Translations under genes and position numbers: made by a program
Shown: in pieces, positions 9,099 through 41,666 of the stretch
How the letters are laid out: every line of letters starts with the position of its first letter
Numbering within the stretch: position 1 is the first letter of the stretch
NCBI GenBank assembly: GCA_964016885.1
Contig: OZ024748.1
Location: 41,230,001-41,294,000 of the forward strand
Length of the DNA stretch: 64,000 bases
Source: Eledone cirrhosa
Lineage: Eukaryota
Reading direction: 5' to 3'
Notes under the pieces: generated by a model
The model's database searches: none
What the model saw: the letters and a program-made list of their open reading frames with translations, nothing else
What the model was told of the DNA's origin: nothing

Positions 9099-9237
9099 TT
9101 TTATTAAGGCTAAATAATGAGTCTTGTTACTCTGGAGTTACATTCGCTTATCACAGGATGATGTTCTAGTCTGGTGATCTTGTGATAAACAGGTGGAACT
9201 CCAGAGTAACAAGACTCATTATTTAGCCTTAATAAAA
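9099..9237. repeat. Fold-back element next to (TA)n with a degenerate hammerhead-like core
   Basis: Arms of ~41 bp are perfectly complementary (ttttattaaggctaaataatgagtcttgttactctggagtt / aactccagagtaacaagactcattatttagccttaataaaa). The right side reads tctagt-CTGGTGA-..-GGAA-ctccagag-TA-acaaga. Confidence 0.85.
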
Positions 9238-9659
9238 TGAATATTTAAACTCTACTTCGAAGAAATCGATCTATATATGCACATATCTATATATAGACAC
9301 ATATCTATATATAGGCATCTATCTATAGACATTTATATATACACATATATATATCATCATCATCGTTTAACGTCCATCTTCCATGCTAGCATGGGTTTGG
9401 ACGATATATATATATATATATATACAGAGATCTATATATAGATATAGACATCTATATCTATATATAGACACACACAAACATATATTTTTCTGTGTAGAAC
9501 AGAGATGGCTTATATCTCGATCTAACTGAATACAAATATAATGGTATATAGAAGAGATTGGACCCATATACATGCATAGATAGAATTAGACATACATATA
9601 CACATATAGATAGAACTAGACATATAGATAGACCTAGACACATATATTCACACACATAG

Positions 9660-10362
9660 ATAGACCTACAAACACACATAGACCAAAATATACACATATA
9701 CATTCTTACAGACACACATACATAGACCTACATATACACACATAGACCAAAATATACACATATACATTCTTACATAGACACACATACAAAGACCTACATA
9801 TACACACATAGACCAAAATATACACATATACATTCTTACATAGACACACATACAAAGACCTACATATACACACATAGACCAAAATATACACATATACATT
9901 CTTACATAGACACACATACAAAGACCTACATATACACACATAGACCAAAATATACACATATACATTCTTACATAGACACACATACAAAGACCTACATATA
10001 CACACATAGACCAAAATATACACATATACATTCTTACATAGACACACATACAAAGACCTACATATACACACATAGACCAAAATATACACATATACATTCT
10101 TACATAGACACACATACAAAGACCTACATATACACACATAGACCAAAATATACACATATACATTCTTACATAGACACACATACAAAGACCTACATATACA
10201 CACATAGACCAAAATATACACATATACATTCTTACATAGACACACATACAAAGACCTACATATACACACATAGACCAAAATATACACATATACATTCTTA
10301 CATAGACACACATACAAAGACCTACATATACACACATAGACCAAAATATACACATATACATT
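9660..10362 (+). repeat. 66-bp minisatellite (about 10 units)
   Basis: Unit cacacatagaccaaaatatacacatatacattcttacatagacacacatacaaagacctacatata. It explains the spurious 22-aa periodic ORFs. Confidence 0.95.
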
Positions 10363-10811
10363 CATATATAGACACACACATTATAGCATGATATATGTGG
10401 AAACACTTGACAGGTTGTACTATCAATATATTAGTTAATACACACACACACACGTTTGTGAGTGTGTATACATGTTTGTGTATATGTGTGTGAGTGTGTG
10501 CTGTGTATATGCGTGTGAGTGTGTACTGTATATATATATATACACACACACATATTTAAGTGTGCATGTGTATATGTCTCTCTACTGCCATATATATATA
10601 TATATATATATACACACACACGTTTGAGAGTGTGTATATATGTATAAGTGGGTATGTATATATAAGTGTATAAGTGTGTATATGTCTATGTGTCTCTACT
10701 GCAATATAACTCAGGATGCCAGTAACACTAATCAATATATTAATACAAGAATTATCCCTAGTAAGATAAACACATCTCCATTGGTGTTGGTTGCCTGATA
10801 CATTAGATGTA

Positions 10812-12086
10812 GAATAGCCCTGTTATTCCTGCAGTCTGGGCCCCTAAACCTTCTCTCTCCCCACCTACACCAATAATATAAAATAGTCCTGTTATTCCTG
10901 TTATTCCAGTCTGGGCCCCTAAACCAGCACAATCCCCTTCTACACTCACCAATAATATAAAATAGTCCTGTTATTCCTGCAGCCTGGGCCCCTAAACCAG
11001 CACAATCCCTTTCTACACTCACCAATAATATAAAATAGCCCTGTTATTCCTGCAGCCTGGGCCCCTAAACCAGCACAATCCCTTTCTACACTCACCAATA
11101 ATATAAAATAGTCCTGTTATTCCTGCAGCCTGGGCCCCTAAACCAGCACAATCCCCTTCTACACTCACCAATAATATAAAATAGCCCTGTTATTCCTGCA
11201 GCCTGGGCCCCTAAACCAGCACAATCCCTTTCTACACTCACCAATAATATAAAATAGCCCTGTTATTCCTGCAGCCTGGGCCCCTAAACCAGCACAATCC
11301 CTTTCTACACTCACCAATAATATAAAATAGCCCTGTTATTCCTGCAGCCTGGGCCCCTAAACCAGCACAATCCCTTTCTACACTCACCAATAATATAAAA
11401 TAGTCCTGTTATTCCTGCAGCCTGGGCCCCTAAACCAGCACAATCCCTTTCTACACTCACCAATAATATAAAATAGTCCTGTTATTCCTGCAGCCTGGGC
11501 CCCTAAACCAGCACAATCCCTTTCTACACTCACCAATAATATAAAATAGCCCTGTTATTCTTGCAGCCTGGGCCCCTAAACCAGCACAATCCCTTTCTAC
11601 ACTCACCAATAATATAAAATAGCCCTGTTATTCTTGCAGCCTGGGCCCCTAAACCAGCACAATCCCTTTCTACACTCACCAATAATATAAAATAGCCCTG
11701 TTATTCTTGCAGCCTGGGCCCCTAAACCAGCACAATCCCTTTCTACACTCACCAATAATATAAAATAGCCCTGTTATTCTTGCAGCCTGGGCCCCTAAAC
11801 CAGCACAATCCCTTTCTACACTCACCAATAATATAAAATAGCCCTGTTATTCTTGCAGCCTGGGCCCCTAAACCAGCACAATCCCTTTCTACACTCACCA
11901 ATAATATAAAATAGCCCTGTTATTCTTGCAGCCTGGGCCCCTAAACCAGCACAATCCCTTTCTACACTCACCAATAATATAAAATAGCCCTGTTATTCTT
12001 GCAGCCTGGGCCCCTAAACCAGCACAATCCCTTTCTACACTCACCAATAATATAAAATAGCCCTGTTATTCTTGCAGCCTGGGCCC
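10812..12086 (+). repeat. 73-bp minisatellite (about 17 units)
   Basis: Unit ccaataatataaaatagccctgttattc(c/t)tgcagcctgggcccctaaaccagcacaatccctttctacactca. Ten units span exactly 730 bp (11241 to 11971). Confidence 0.96.
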
Positions 12087-12457
12087 TTCTCTCACCCTAC
12101 ACCCAGCCAACCTTACTTCACAGCTGGAATTAATTGTGGTAATGTAGAATAAAGTGTTTTTACAAAGGAACTTAGTAAAACTACAACAGACAGGGAGTCC
12201 AATATATTTACTTCCACTAAATCATGTCAACCACTCTCTCTTTCCTCCTTCCCATATAAATACATAGAAACACACACACACATATATATATATATATATA
12301 TATATATATATATATATATATATATATATACATTTGCAGCAGCATCACTATTTAACTTCTATTTATCCTTTTATTTATATATATATCATCTACTTCCTCC
12401 TAAGTGTGATACTAATAAGACTGTTTTTGTATCTGTATCATGTTGCCATTTCTTGAA

Positions 12458-13073
12458 CTATATATATATATATATATATATATGTATATATATAAAATTA
12501 AGTATGTGTGTGTCTGTGTATTACCTATAGGGGCCTACATCTTACAACCGATTTTCATGAAACTTTACAGGCTCATAGATTAGTCATTGGGGAGTGTTTT
12601 CTATATATCAGCGTATTGTTTTTTTTATTCCGGGTCATTCTGCAGATCAAAATCACCTCTTTTTAGGTATCGAAAAATAAGATTTTCGGCTCTAGCTCCC
12701 ACATTAATAAACCTACTAGATCTGATTATTTCATGTCTTAAAGTGGCTTTACATTTTGGATTTTTTGTTCAGGGGCGGCGTGGCAGCCGCTTAAATATTC
12801 GAAAGTACCCCCTTTTCGCTCAAATTTCCGCCTTTTCGGCTCTAGCACCCACATTTTTCAACCGATTTCGTTCAAATTCGAAACTCCCTCCCCCAGCATT
12901 CCCCTTCGTCAGTCACCCGCATTTCTCAGTGATAGAGGTCATCACCACACTCCCCCGCTTGGCCTGTGTGTGGCCATAGAAGAGTCATCGAGAAGCAGTC
13001 GCTAAGATCAACACCTTTTCATCAAAGCAGATATTATTTTACCTACCCAGGCAACGCTGGGTACTGCTGCTAG
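12458..13073 (+). mobile_element. Non-autonomous Helitron (Lep1-like architecture)
   Basis: The 3' hairpin tacccag-gcaacg-ctgggta (13044-13063) is followed after 6 nt by CTAG and then T. The 5' region has (TA)n-aaatt, a tgtgtgtctg microsatellite and aaccgattttcatgaaacttt. The 5' boundary is uncertain. Confidence 0.7.
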
Positions 13074-13136
13074 TACCATCATCGTTTAACGTCATATGTA
13101 TATTCATATTCAATTATATTAAGGCTGAAAAGTGAG

Positions 13137-40345: not shown

Positions 40346-40357
40346 TATATATACATA

Positions 40358-40521
40358 TATAGCTAAAATTCCGTTATAACGAAAACCATTATAAGGAATT
40401 TTTCAGTATAACGAATTTTTTTTCAATTCCCAACACACGCTCGATCTCGTTATAAAGAATTTTTCATTACAACGAATTTGTTTATACCCAAAGAATTTCG
40501 TTATAACGGAATTTCACTATA
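40358..40521. mobile_element. pogo/Tc1-mariner-type MITE in TA context
   Basis: TIRs aaattccgttataacgaaa ... tttcgttataacggaattt(cacta), with internal ataacgaatt subrepeats. Confidence 0.7.
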
Positions 40522-40689
40522 TATATATATATATATATATATATATATATATATATGCAAAAGTTATATTTAATTTGTTGGGATTCAACAAGCTTAAAAG
40601 TTTTATAACTGATATAAAGCACTCAACAGTTTACTGGAGTAAATATTCGATATATTAATAAATGGAAACTATATTTATAAAACCATAAT

Positions 40690-40754
40690 TATTTTATTAT
40701 ATATATTTCAAGAGCAACCAAGGCAGTTTTGGTGCGCTTTCATCAGATAAAATA
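40690..40754 (-). ncRNA. Minimal type I hammerhead ribozyme motif (family A)
   Basis: The minus strand reads tattttat-CTGATGA-aagcgcacca..tggttgctctt-GAAA-tatata-TA-ataaaata. Confidence 0.8.
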
Positions 40755-40862
40755 CAAAATTTGTTTTATAAATGTTGACATACCCGGTAGACTATCCAGC
40801 GAACCTCCAACCGTCAAGATCGTTTTTCTGTGGGTATGTCAACATCTATAAAACAAATTTTG

Positions 40863-40928
40863 TATTTTATCTGATGAAAGCGCACCAAAATTTGCCTTGG
40901 TTGCTCTTGAAATATATATAATAAAATA
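40863..40928 (+). ncRNA. Minimal type I hammerhead ribozyme motif (family A)
   Basis: tattttat-CTGATGA-aagcgcaccaaaatttgccttggttgctctt-GAAA-tatata-TA-ataaaata. Confidence 0.82.
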
Positions 40929-41666
40929 ATTATGGTTTTATAAATATAGTTTCCATTTATTAATATATCGTATATATATATATATATATATATATATATA
41001 TATATATATATATATATATATATATATATAAAATATTATAAAATAAGAAGGAATAATAGACACAATATATATATACCAAGAGCAAGAATGAAGGGTTCAT
41101 TATACGGACATGGCTATAAAATTGAGGCTTGATTGCATAATTGCAAACGAATCGAATGTTATTATTAATATTAGAAAAAGTCAGATTACATTATATATAT
41201 ATATATATATACATATATATATATATATATATATATATATATATATATATATATATATATATATATATATATATATGTATACGTACATACATATATGTAT
41301 ACAGACGTACAGTAGTATGTATATATATATATATATATATTATATATATATATATATATATATATATATACATACTACTGTACGCCTGTATACATATATG
41401 TATGTACGTATACATACTTATATTTAAGTAACAGCCGTACTAAGAGTGAGAAATGAAATTTCGTTTCATTTTTTCCGTTTATATATATATATATATATAT
41501 ATATATATATATATATATATATATATATATTTCGTTTCTGAATTTGTTTAGCAAGATTCTTTATCTGAAAACGTGTGTTGAAACCGATATTGTTATACTT
41601 TGGGAGAAACAAGATGGCGTAGGACAGAACAAAGGAGAGGCACAAAAACAAAGAAAAGAATCCCCA

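Follow-up and report, generated by a model that had tools for sequence, protein, structure and literature searches.

The window analysed here, a stretch of 64,000 nucleotides of the Eledone cirrhosa genome, carries fold-back elements, solo arms and a tail-only piece assigned to seven hammerhead families (A to G), each of which has two fixed ends, termed the short end and the tail end. Hammerheads in this window were located by means of a purpose-built descriptor, which gave 85 matches in 970 kb of evenly spaced stretches versus none in a Markov resample. An Rfam scan at gathering thresholds returned no match within the 64-kb window, and single-strand folding of the window hammerheads, to which no weight is given as evidence, recovered stems I and II in part and not the whole ribozyme fold. 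The following features were identified, with signed positions counted from the ribozyme cut site:

9099..9260 (right boundary approximate): decayed family B fold-back; the antisense arm (9099-9156) is short-ended, and the sense arm, which starts near 9165, has a mutated hammerhead core and a tail eroded after 9237; (TA)20 on the left side only.
13101..13188, minus strand: family B solo arm, short-ended.
17884..18075, minus strand: family A solo arm that has its short end at (TA)n, reaches -129 at its 5' end and contains a complete type I hammerhead (17992-17943).
21649..21802: family G fold-back, overlooked in the first-pass annotation; tail-ended antisense arm and short-ended sense arm.
25080..25239: family C fold-back with (TA)n on both flanks; perfect palindrome at 25077-25162, equal to the 3' half of a U3-A8 hammerhead; right arm with tail 25160-25239.
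25694..25800, plus strand: solo arm with a hammerhead, related to family A, its short end lying at (TA)n.
25860..27003: family D fold-back (422-nt tandem unit) with (TA)n on both flanks; antisense arm 25860-26539 short-ended, 1.6 units long, with two hammerheads (26103 and 26525); sense arm 26547-27003 tail-ended, with one (26699).
27045..27426, minus strand: second family D copy, separate and diverged, tail-ended; (TA)23 lies between it and the preceding element.
27472..27803: family A fold-back whose antisense arm, 27472-27674, is short-ended and holds a hammerhead (27569-27521); its sense arm begins at +12 and includes the tail.
37437..37733: family F fold-back with (TA)n on both flanks; tail-ended antisense arm 37437-37563, starting at +10 and without a core; short-ended sense arm, hammerhead 37631-37685.
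38691..39699: family E fold-back (657-nt tandem unit) with (TA)n on both flanks; antisense arm tail-ended, about 680 nt long (slightly more than one unit), with its hammerhead at 39144-39077; sense arm 39367-39699 short-ended.
40557..40970: family A fold-back with (TA)19 and (TA)30 at its flanks; the antisense arm 40557-40786 is tail-ended, with the tail at 40557-40647 and a hammerhead at 40746-40698, and the sense arm 40791-40970 is short-ended, with its hammerhead at 40871-40920.
42755..42837, plus strand: family C tail-only piece.

It had been proposed in the first-pass annotation that seven of these places are inverted pairs whose hammerhead-sense 3' ends point outward, and this was confirmed for all seven, the family G element at 21649-21802 being an eighth head-to-head case. 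A complete hammerhead core is present on both strands only at 40648-40970 and 25860-27003, and on one arm in the elements at 27472, 37525 and 38785; the core at 9099 is decayed and 25077 comprises the 3' half only, and the polarity of these two was read from family copies elsewhere. The sole tail-to-tail pair in the window is formed by the element at 25860 and the separate copy at 27045. The same polarity prevails for the seven families in the sample, composed of the window and 214 other stretches of the same genome: 130 of 140 opposite-strand pairs are head-to-head, and eight of the other ten are neighbours separated by (TA)n; tail-to-tail joins without (TA)n occur at L086, L151 and L046. In the evenly spaced stretches the count is 37 head-to-head versus 4 tail-to-tail (p=1e-7). 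The insert tally was filtered for the TA/TG-rich part of the family D unit, which swamps unfiltered counts. One duplicate row (L032, with flanks identical to those of L021) was omitted from the pairing, rare-allele and subfamily counts and is still included in the counts of (TA)n contact, arm divergence and insert ends (n=101). This polarity is not new, the head-to-head order having already been called the most frequent arrangement (PMC3846280); together with the one-sided tail and (TA)n targeting it is already published, and it will not surprise a specialist.

The elements first delimited at these places are real, but their coordinates were too narrow, as one arm extends into a tail of about 55-100 nt that is absent from the other arm, and the extents listed above have been corrected for this. 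With the tail included, (TA)n is reached on both sides by most elements (five of the seven by a scripted rule, and that at 27472 by eye), which agrees with the earlier statement that at least one end abuts (TA)n. The accompanying claim that the (TA)n-side end lies 43-55 nt past the cut holds for the elements at 27472, 40648 and 37525 and fails for the others, where the short end is found at about +33 (family B, at 9099), +18 (25077), +209 (25860) and +287 (38785). Targeting of (TA)n by the inserts is supported across the sample, where a TA run of at least 8 nt lies at one end in 100 of 101 inserts and at both ends in 70 of 101, compared with 10% of random positions. The arms are variably 5'-truncated, as had been noted, with lengths from a few tens to more than 1,000 nt; inserts in the evenly spaced sample span 80-749 nt, and most are stubs of 80-400 nt without an ORF. 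Arms stop at fixed element ends, beyond which the flanks differ, and contigs from public sequencing runs show (TA)n immediately behind the short ends of families C and A. A search for empty sites by way of paralogous flanks yielded candidate pairs for 13 of 116 inserts and no clean empty site, and no target duplication was recovered, such duplications being unreadable inside (TA)n. Two candidates from read data were discarded: an 'opposite strands' joint at 27507-27673, considered as a fold-back junction in raw reads, since a plain tail-ended arm maps likewise onto two arms, and inverted joints within family D in runs X9 and X10, with sides of 21-25 nt, 1-2 starts and no readable polarity.

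With regard to the nature of these families, A and C appear from their sequence to be the ends of Hydra-type Penelope-like elements (PLEs), in line with the origin suggested at the outset, as the ends of both continue into linked RT and GIY-YIG frames. The family A master copy, L031, contains frameshifted RT pieces that were found by motif and have no match to Pfam RVT_1, along with a GIY-YIG domain whose Pfam score (E=1.5e-4, 22.4 bits) is marginally below the cut-off of 22.6; a related broken frame, L166, lies in family C sense orientation, and 150 relatives scored in this genome have open frames of at most 743 aa. Direct pLTR repeats, the family A copies L027 and L026, flank the L031 frame at a distance of 3,676 bp from each other, a result that covers family A. 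Translations read by eye show RWR in the place of RWK, DKT, and CNCRIKSNC (CxCX5C) before GIY-YIG, followed by CNLC and CKH, in L031, and CNCPDRSTC, CNLC and CKH in L166. According to the available text of PMC8557442, the Hydra clade is marked by RWK, DKT and CxCX5C, by CxxC and CxH within the endonuclease, by the lack of a CCHH motif and by (TA)n as target; the canonical hammerhead of L031 also agrees with that clade, whose members are usually below 3 kb, whereas L031 spans 3.7 kb between its pLTRs and has RWR for RWK. The pLTRs of A and C both carry a predicted type I hammerhead, but in C 22 of 24 matches show a U3-A8 core, a variant already described (PMC4209133) that differs from the Hydra clade. 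Families B, F and G are probably also PLE members, judging from hammerhead, tail and target, and all seven families share 5' truncation, an inverted upstream copy and a one-sided tail.

Families D and E, known from DNA alone, look like retrozyme-like tandem units, being non-coding, with periods of 422 and 657 nt and a type I hammerhead in each. In these respects they resemble the metazoan non-LTR retrozymes (available parts of PMC7229834 and bioRxiv 10.64898/2026.07.22.740005), for which PLEs have been proposed in the same sources as mobilisers. The family E unit exceeds the 170-400 nt reported there for retrozyme circles, and D and E carry PLE short and tail ends and inverted arms, which the available parts of these descriptions do not include.

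What is added here beyond the published layout is a rule for how the ends are combined, together with the relationship between the arms. Among 130 inserts, 24 had an unclassed end and 106 were fully classed; 100 of these 106 have a short end on one side and a tail end on the other, where about half would be expected by chance (p=2e-23 against independent choice); the exceptions are four short-plus-short and two tail-plus-tail inserts. The tail is on the left in 50 and on the right in 50 of these 100, unpaired arms take both end types about equally (19 short, 24 tail), and six longer family C pairs, read by eye, are all short-plus-tail. In 57 of the 100 inserts the arms cannot be simple copies of each other, as 39 overlap only partially and 18 do not overlap at all; in the remaining 43 the arms share the same 5' end (30) or the short arm is nested in the tail arm (13). 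Where truncation of either arm would show equally well, the tail arm is shorter 33 times and the short-ended arm 12 times (p=0.002), a skew that does not reach significance when the evenly spaced sample is taken by itself (7 versus 3, p=0.34).

The two arms of an insert come from a common source. Rare alleles are present in both arms 82 times, versus 11 in permuted pairs, and in 15 non-overlapping inserts, whose arms cannot convert each other, body and tail match by subfamily (mean rho 0.38 versus 0.13, p=0.002); family B shows no such match (0.32 versus 0.45, n=3). Paired arms diverge by a median of 3.4%. For 41 of 58 inserts, some other copy resembles an arm at least as closely as the partner arm does, so that one molecule cannot be distinguished from one active source.

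We consider the likeliest mechanism, and a probable one, to be twin priming on a single uncleaved RNA with two fixed start sites, given that the short-plus-tail rule and the single source of both arms point to two start sites on one RNA. In this scheme, a pLTR transcript, taken to be uncleaved by its hammerhead because the arms run through the cut site, would be bound by a dimeric RT-endonuclease that cuts both strands in (TA)n and copies the one RNA from both broken ends. Each 3'-OH in (TA)n would act as a primer, one at the upstream site, giving the short end, and one 55-100 nt downstream, giving the tail end, possibly assisted by the TA-like letters that follow both start sites. Both cDNAs would then extend toward the 5' end of the RNA, and the tail-primed cDNA would either stop before the upstream site, leaving non-overlapping arms, or displace the other cDNA, giving a palindrome; end-joining of the two cDNA 3' ends would fix the head-to-head polarity. 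Short stubs would dominate, as both start sites would be close to the start of the RNA, and the templates for D and E would be multimeric or circular RNA, copied in trans. For family C, RT stalling at hammerhead stem II was rejected as the cause of the 5' pile-up, which lies at -40, beyond the stem entry near -25, and fits an RNA start better. It has been demonstrated that a purified anole PLE protein, for which a dimer is predicted, cuts and extends both strands, uses uncleaved RNA and starts at two internal sites that bound a tail; on the other hand, its use of start sites did not differ between strands, and priming took place without homology to the cut DNA (PMC11167929). The first-pass interpretation is partly supported: priming from both sides of a break stands as the likeliest route, but not as two equivalent independent events, and self-complementary (TA)n may well help but is not required, as inserts with an inverted pLTR and 8-10 bp target duplications are known in other sequence (PMC3846280).

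Several other routes to such inserts can be envisaged. A single priming at the tail end, after which the cDNA 3' end folds back and copies itself, the endonuclease resolves the product at the short end and later deletions at the hairpin centre leave unequal arms, would yield the strict pairing and the shared alleles without further assumptions, accommodates 43 of the 100 inserts as directly as twin priming does, and agrees with the ascription of the tail to endonuclease-mediated resolution in the available text of PMC8557442. We regard it as unlikely, as it needs a secondary deletion in the other 57, leaves the 33:12 bias toward a shorter tail arm unexplained and does not produce adjacent internal inversions such as L228, which ends in (TA)5 and resembles L1 twin priming; moreover, both tail boundaries are RT start sites in vitro (PMC11167929). 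Nearest to the wording of the first-pass annotation is the idea that two RNAs from one active source each prime one strand within an asymmetric dimer, as in the dual priming proposed for L1 (PMC2837659). The overlap of the arms would then need no strand displacement, and the shared alleles no more than a common source locus; however, two equal RNAs predict short-plus-short and tail-plus-tail inserts in about half of cases, against 6 of 106 observed, and the arms agree by subfamily although many subfamilies coexist, which makes this route rather unlikely as well.

Much less probable is self-priming on an antisense transcript, with the hairpin made before integration, as proposed for rotifer Penelope to account for head-to-head junctions (PMC3846280). 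Some junctions are indeed short palindromes with overlaps of 1-18 nt, although these are uncontrolled BLAST ends on which no claim of microhomology is based; one arm would have to be a copy of its partner, contrary to what 57 of 100 inserts show, the two outer ends are both fixed sites on the sense strand, and the in vitro enzyme used a sense template (PMC11167929). Least credible of all is that the inserts represent DNA-transposon MITEs, or chimeras formed by fold-back during sequencing or assembly. TA-flanked short inverted repeats do resemble MITEs, and the window junctions are known from the assembly alone; nevertheless, instead of constant lengths and matching TIRs there are arms of widely varying length and two ends that differ by a tail and run on into RT and GIY-YIG frames, as the first-pass annotation had foreseen in warning against the MITE label. 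Fixed element ends, different flanks, the divergence between arms and the (TA)n found behind the C and A short ends in public-run contigs are likewise unlike a chimera.

Comparison with known systems places twin priming, the reading preferred here, in context. Insertions of EN+ PLEs in Adineta vaga have the same inverted, 5'-truncated head-to-head copy, tail on one inverted end and pLTR hammerhead (PMC3846280; available text of PMC8557442), but with a tail of 30-40 bp that is described as optional, whereas here it measures 55-100 nt and occupies exactly one end in 100 of 106. Poseidon from Anolis carolinensis likewise has, in vitro, two start sites that bound the tail and an AT-rich target, although it belongs to another clade and its start sites are a few tens of nucleotides apart or less and inside the ORF, whereas those of family A precede the ORF start; that study neither connected the two strands of a single target nor accounted for the inverted copy, and it left the steps after priming unvalidated (PMC11167929). 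In L1, twin priming, beside which dual priming has been proposed (PMC2837659), also sets two primers on a single RNA and gives inverted pieces whose RNA 3' ends point outward, but it is a variant seen occasionally there, which starts at poly(A), has no fixed second site and yields non-overlapping pieces, while here both sites are fixed and internal and overlap is usual. The origin of tandem and inverted PLE insertions is named as an open problem in the available text of PMC8557442; no proposal of twin or dual priming for PLEs was found in open-licence literature listings, and older PLE papers or supplements may state the short-plus-tail rule.

The short-plus-tail rule and the non-nested arms provide the basis for a sharp test of the mechanism in the existing in vitro PLE system. 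For genome annotation, the stubs are to be regarded as retroelement remnants and not counted as DNA transposons; their density of about 38 per Mb extrapolates to roughly 110,000 genome-wide for the seven families only. We tentatively suggest that twin priming may be the normal route of endonuclease-bearing PLEs, in which a dimeric RT-GIY-YIG enzyme on a single RNA would assign the two start sites to the two strands of a double-strand cut and copy the shared stretch twice by strand displacement, so that tail, inverted pLTR and polarity would result from one event, and the same machine would copy retrozyme RNA in multimeric or circular form. If this is true, such one-event insertion would be recorded about 100,000 times in this genome.

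The first-pass annotation, which had described seven fold-backs of a single polarity at (TA)n (9099, 25077, 25860, 27472, 37525, 38785 and 40648), is confirmed in its observation and corrected in its boundaries. The inverted pairs are genuine at all seven places, and an antisense left arm with a sense right arm is found in each of them, as well as in an eighth fold-back at 21649-21802. The limits originally drawn were too narrow, as one arm per element extends ~55-100 nt further (the tail) up to (TA)n, and the distance of 43-55 nt suggested between the cut and the (TA)n end holds for three of the seven elements and fails for the rest. 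Ribozymes were searched with a type I hammerhead descriptor.

Type I descriptor matches in the window fold-backs
27569, minus strand, complete hammerhead core
37631, plus strand, complete hammerhead core
39144, minus strand, complete hammerhead core
40746, minus strand, complete hammerhead core
40871, plus strand, complete hammerhead core
26103, minus strand, hammerhead core motif
26525, minus strand, hammerhead core motif
26699, plus strand, hammerhead core motif

The core is decayed at 9099 and represented by its 3' half only at 25077, and arm polarity at both was taken from family copies elsewhere; for 25077, a member of family C, it also rests on a reverse transcriptase (RT) frame running in the same sense. 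Among other features of the window, a palindrome at 27916-27975, followed by letters resembling the start of family A and F tails, may be another stub of a Penelope-like element (PLE), and a palindrome at 44279-44384 adjoins (TA)n. In contrast to the fold-backs, a 100-nt element at 18584-18684 has no hammerhead; its terminal inverted repeats match, it is flanked by TA at either end, and it resembles a genuine Tc1/mariner-type MITE. A single type I hammerhead of a different family, with a long stem II, lies at 8013-8072 (+). A long LINE at 31790-37122 (+), presumably L1/Tx1-type by domain order, encodes an ORF1 with a weak zinc-knuckle match and then endonuclease, RT and zf-RVT domains, the latter part being broken by a frameshift. 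From about 48,300 to 64,000 runs a long satellite whose period, by self-alignment offsets, is near 39-40 nt, and many shorter ones occur in other parts.

In stretches sampled evenly from the 3.0-Gb source genome, descriptor matches number about 88 per Mb, grouped in 13 or more multi-member clusters. A pair of family A copies separated by 3,676 bp flanks a frameshifted frame that carries RT motifs as well as a GIY-YIG domain. Its RWR, DKT, CxCX5C, CxxC and CxH motifs agree with the definition of the Hydra clade in the available text of PMC8557442; its relatives are abundant, with open frames of at most 743 aa among 150 scored, and two public relatives measure 700 and 715 aa. Family C, which accounts for 20 of the 37 fold-backs in an evenly spaced sample and is thus the most frequent, forms the end of a related frame in another stretch of this genome (L166) and has a U3-A8 core in 22 of 24 matches, a variant known from the accessible part of PMC4209133. 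Its stubs mostly start within the ribozyme, downstream of that core (L221-L249, L166, L150). The tandem units of families D and E, 422 and 657 nt long, carry a hammerhead and no coding sequence, and in this they are like retrozymes, which PMC7229834 and bioRxiv 10.64898/2026.07.22.740005, as far as accessible, tie to PLEs. The window elements belong to a known kind, as PLE ends in families A and C, putative PLE ends in B, F and G and retrozyme-like units in D and E, and their head-to-head polarity (hammerhead-sense 3' ends outward) is already known: in the portions available, PMC3846280 gives head-to-head as the most frequent arrangement, with one of the inverted terminal repeats (pLTRs) tailed, PMC8557442 describes (TA)n targeting as well as an inverted copy with a tail on one side, and PMC4209133 reports opposite-strand hammerhead pairs at 100-700 bp spacing. 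Another type of PLE, Neptune- or Nematis-like in the CX4CxxC linker that precedes its GIY-YIG, occurs in L032 (4750-7111, minus strand) and L205 (6012-7838), and the L205 copy is a head-to-head insert in its own right, 1.8 kb long. L046, L208 and L144 contain tandem hammerhead arrays whose units measure ~310 and 467 nt.

Pairs, defined as opposite-strand arms of one family within 400 nt, were tallied in 97 evenly spaced 10-kb stretches (85 descriptor matches vs 0 in a resample), in 117 targeted loci, obtained by querying with families A, B, D and E or by extension of such loci, and in window bases 1-46,000.

Orientation of pairs
Window: 8 head-to-head, 1 tail-to-tail
Evenly spaced stretches: 37 head-to-head, 4 tail-to-tail
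Targeted loci: 85 head-to-head, 5 tail-to-tail (one duplicate removed)

Eight of the 10 tail-to-tail pairs have (TA)n between their arms, one is a coordinate artefact and one a true exception (L086). Two further exceptions, at L151 6040-6900 and L046 4570-5210, involve a D-related family outside the tally; the joins lacking (TA)n (L151, L046, L086) are between family D or related 467-nt-unit copies and sit at non-standard ends. Both ends could be classed in 106 of 130 head-to-head inserts, and 100 of these pair a short end, at the nearer fixed 3' end of the arm, with a tail end, four being short+short and two tail+tail, where independent choice would give short+tail in about half; in the evenly spaced set alone the figure is 29 of 30. 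TA runs adjoin at least one end in 100 of 101 inserts and both in 70 (background 10%). An inverted-repeat search free of family references recovered more and larger pairs with hammerheads in both arms (L143, L144, L158, L205), head-to-head in every readable case. Among 29 long family C loci, six hold a head-to-head pair with both ends visible, all short+tail, and one a tail-to-tail pair separated by (TA)12. Internal inversions or short 5'-end palindromes replace the second pLTR arm in the long family C copies L228, L238, L248 and L223. Single (TA)n tracts collect several hammerhead families with TA runs between them (L040, L144, L166, L171; window 24800-28000), and 5'-truncated ends often meet the flank via TA letters. 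That the inserts are MITEs or chimeras is hardly credible; contigs from two public runs of one sample, which cover short ends in general and not the window's own junctions, carry (TA)n immediately behind the short ends of family C (20 and 25 contigs) and family A (27 and 26).

An arm copied from its partner should lie within that partner. Among the 100 short+tail inserts, 39 have overlapping arms without nesting, 18 non-overlapping arms, 13 nested arms and 30 a common 5' end (within 5 nt, in some only because the reference stopped there). Against this background, antisense self-priming, proposed in the available text of PMC3846280, appears very improbable, and snap-back with endonuclease resolution and a later central deletion is unlikely. 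Where either truncation would show equally well, 33 inserts are cut back further on the tail arm and 12 on the short arm (p=0.002; 7 vs 3 in the evenly spaced set). The median divergence is 3.4% between partner arms and 7.9% between an arm and other copies. In 55 of 58 inserts the partner is nearer than the median non-partner copy, but in 41 of the 58 at least one such copy equals or beats it; rare alleles are shared by both arms 82 times vs 11 by permutation and confined to one arm 224 times. Priming from two RNAs on an asymmetric dimer is about as unlikely as snap-back. In the 15 of 16 non-overlapping A, B and C inserts that were scorable, body and tail subfamilies match on average (mean rho 0.38 vs 0.13, p=0.002), family B alone showing no match, and since these arms do not overlap, conversion between them is not the cause.

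The best reading, which we consider moderately probable, is one RNA, two primers and two fixed start sites. It joins the tally, nesting and source counts to in vitro results in the accessible part of PMC11167929, where both strands are cut and extended, two internal starts bound the tail, the RNA is uncleaved and a dimer is predicted. The tail-primed enzyme would displace the upstream cDNA, and the two cDNAs would be united by end-joining. Arms run across the hammerhead cut, and those of families D and E exceed one unit, suggesting that the template is uncleaved, multimeric or circular. Of 66 family C arms extending upstream of the cut with an alignment of ≥85%, 51 end between -47 and -33, and 19 of the 34 targeted family A arms reaching -125 end between -130 and -125; these pile-ups are read as RNA starts, and their letters may resemble an initiator element.

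Twin priming and dual priming are defined for L1 in the available text of PMC2837659. A literature search, outside older subscription papers and supplements, found neither a twin-priming proposal for PLEs nor a short+tail count, and the accessible portions of PMC13282606 and PMC8969392 yielded no test of MITE mislabelling. How inverted-copy and tail structures form is listed as open in the part of PMC8557442 available. What this analysis adds is a near-strict short+tail rule together with non-nested arms of one source; with these, a step of PLE integration that is still open can be put to a direct test.
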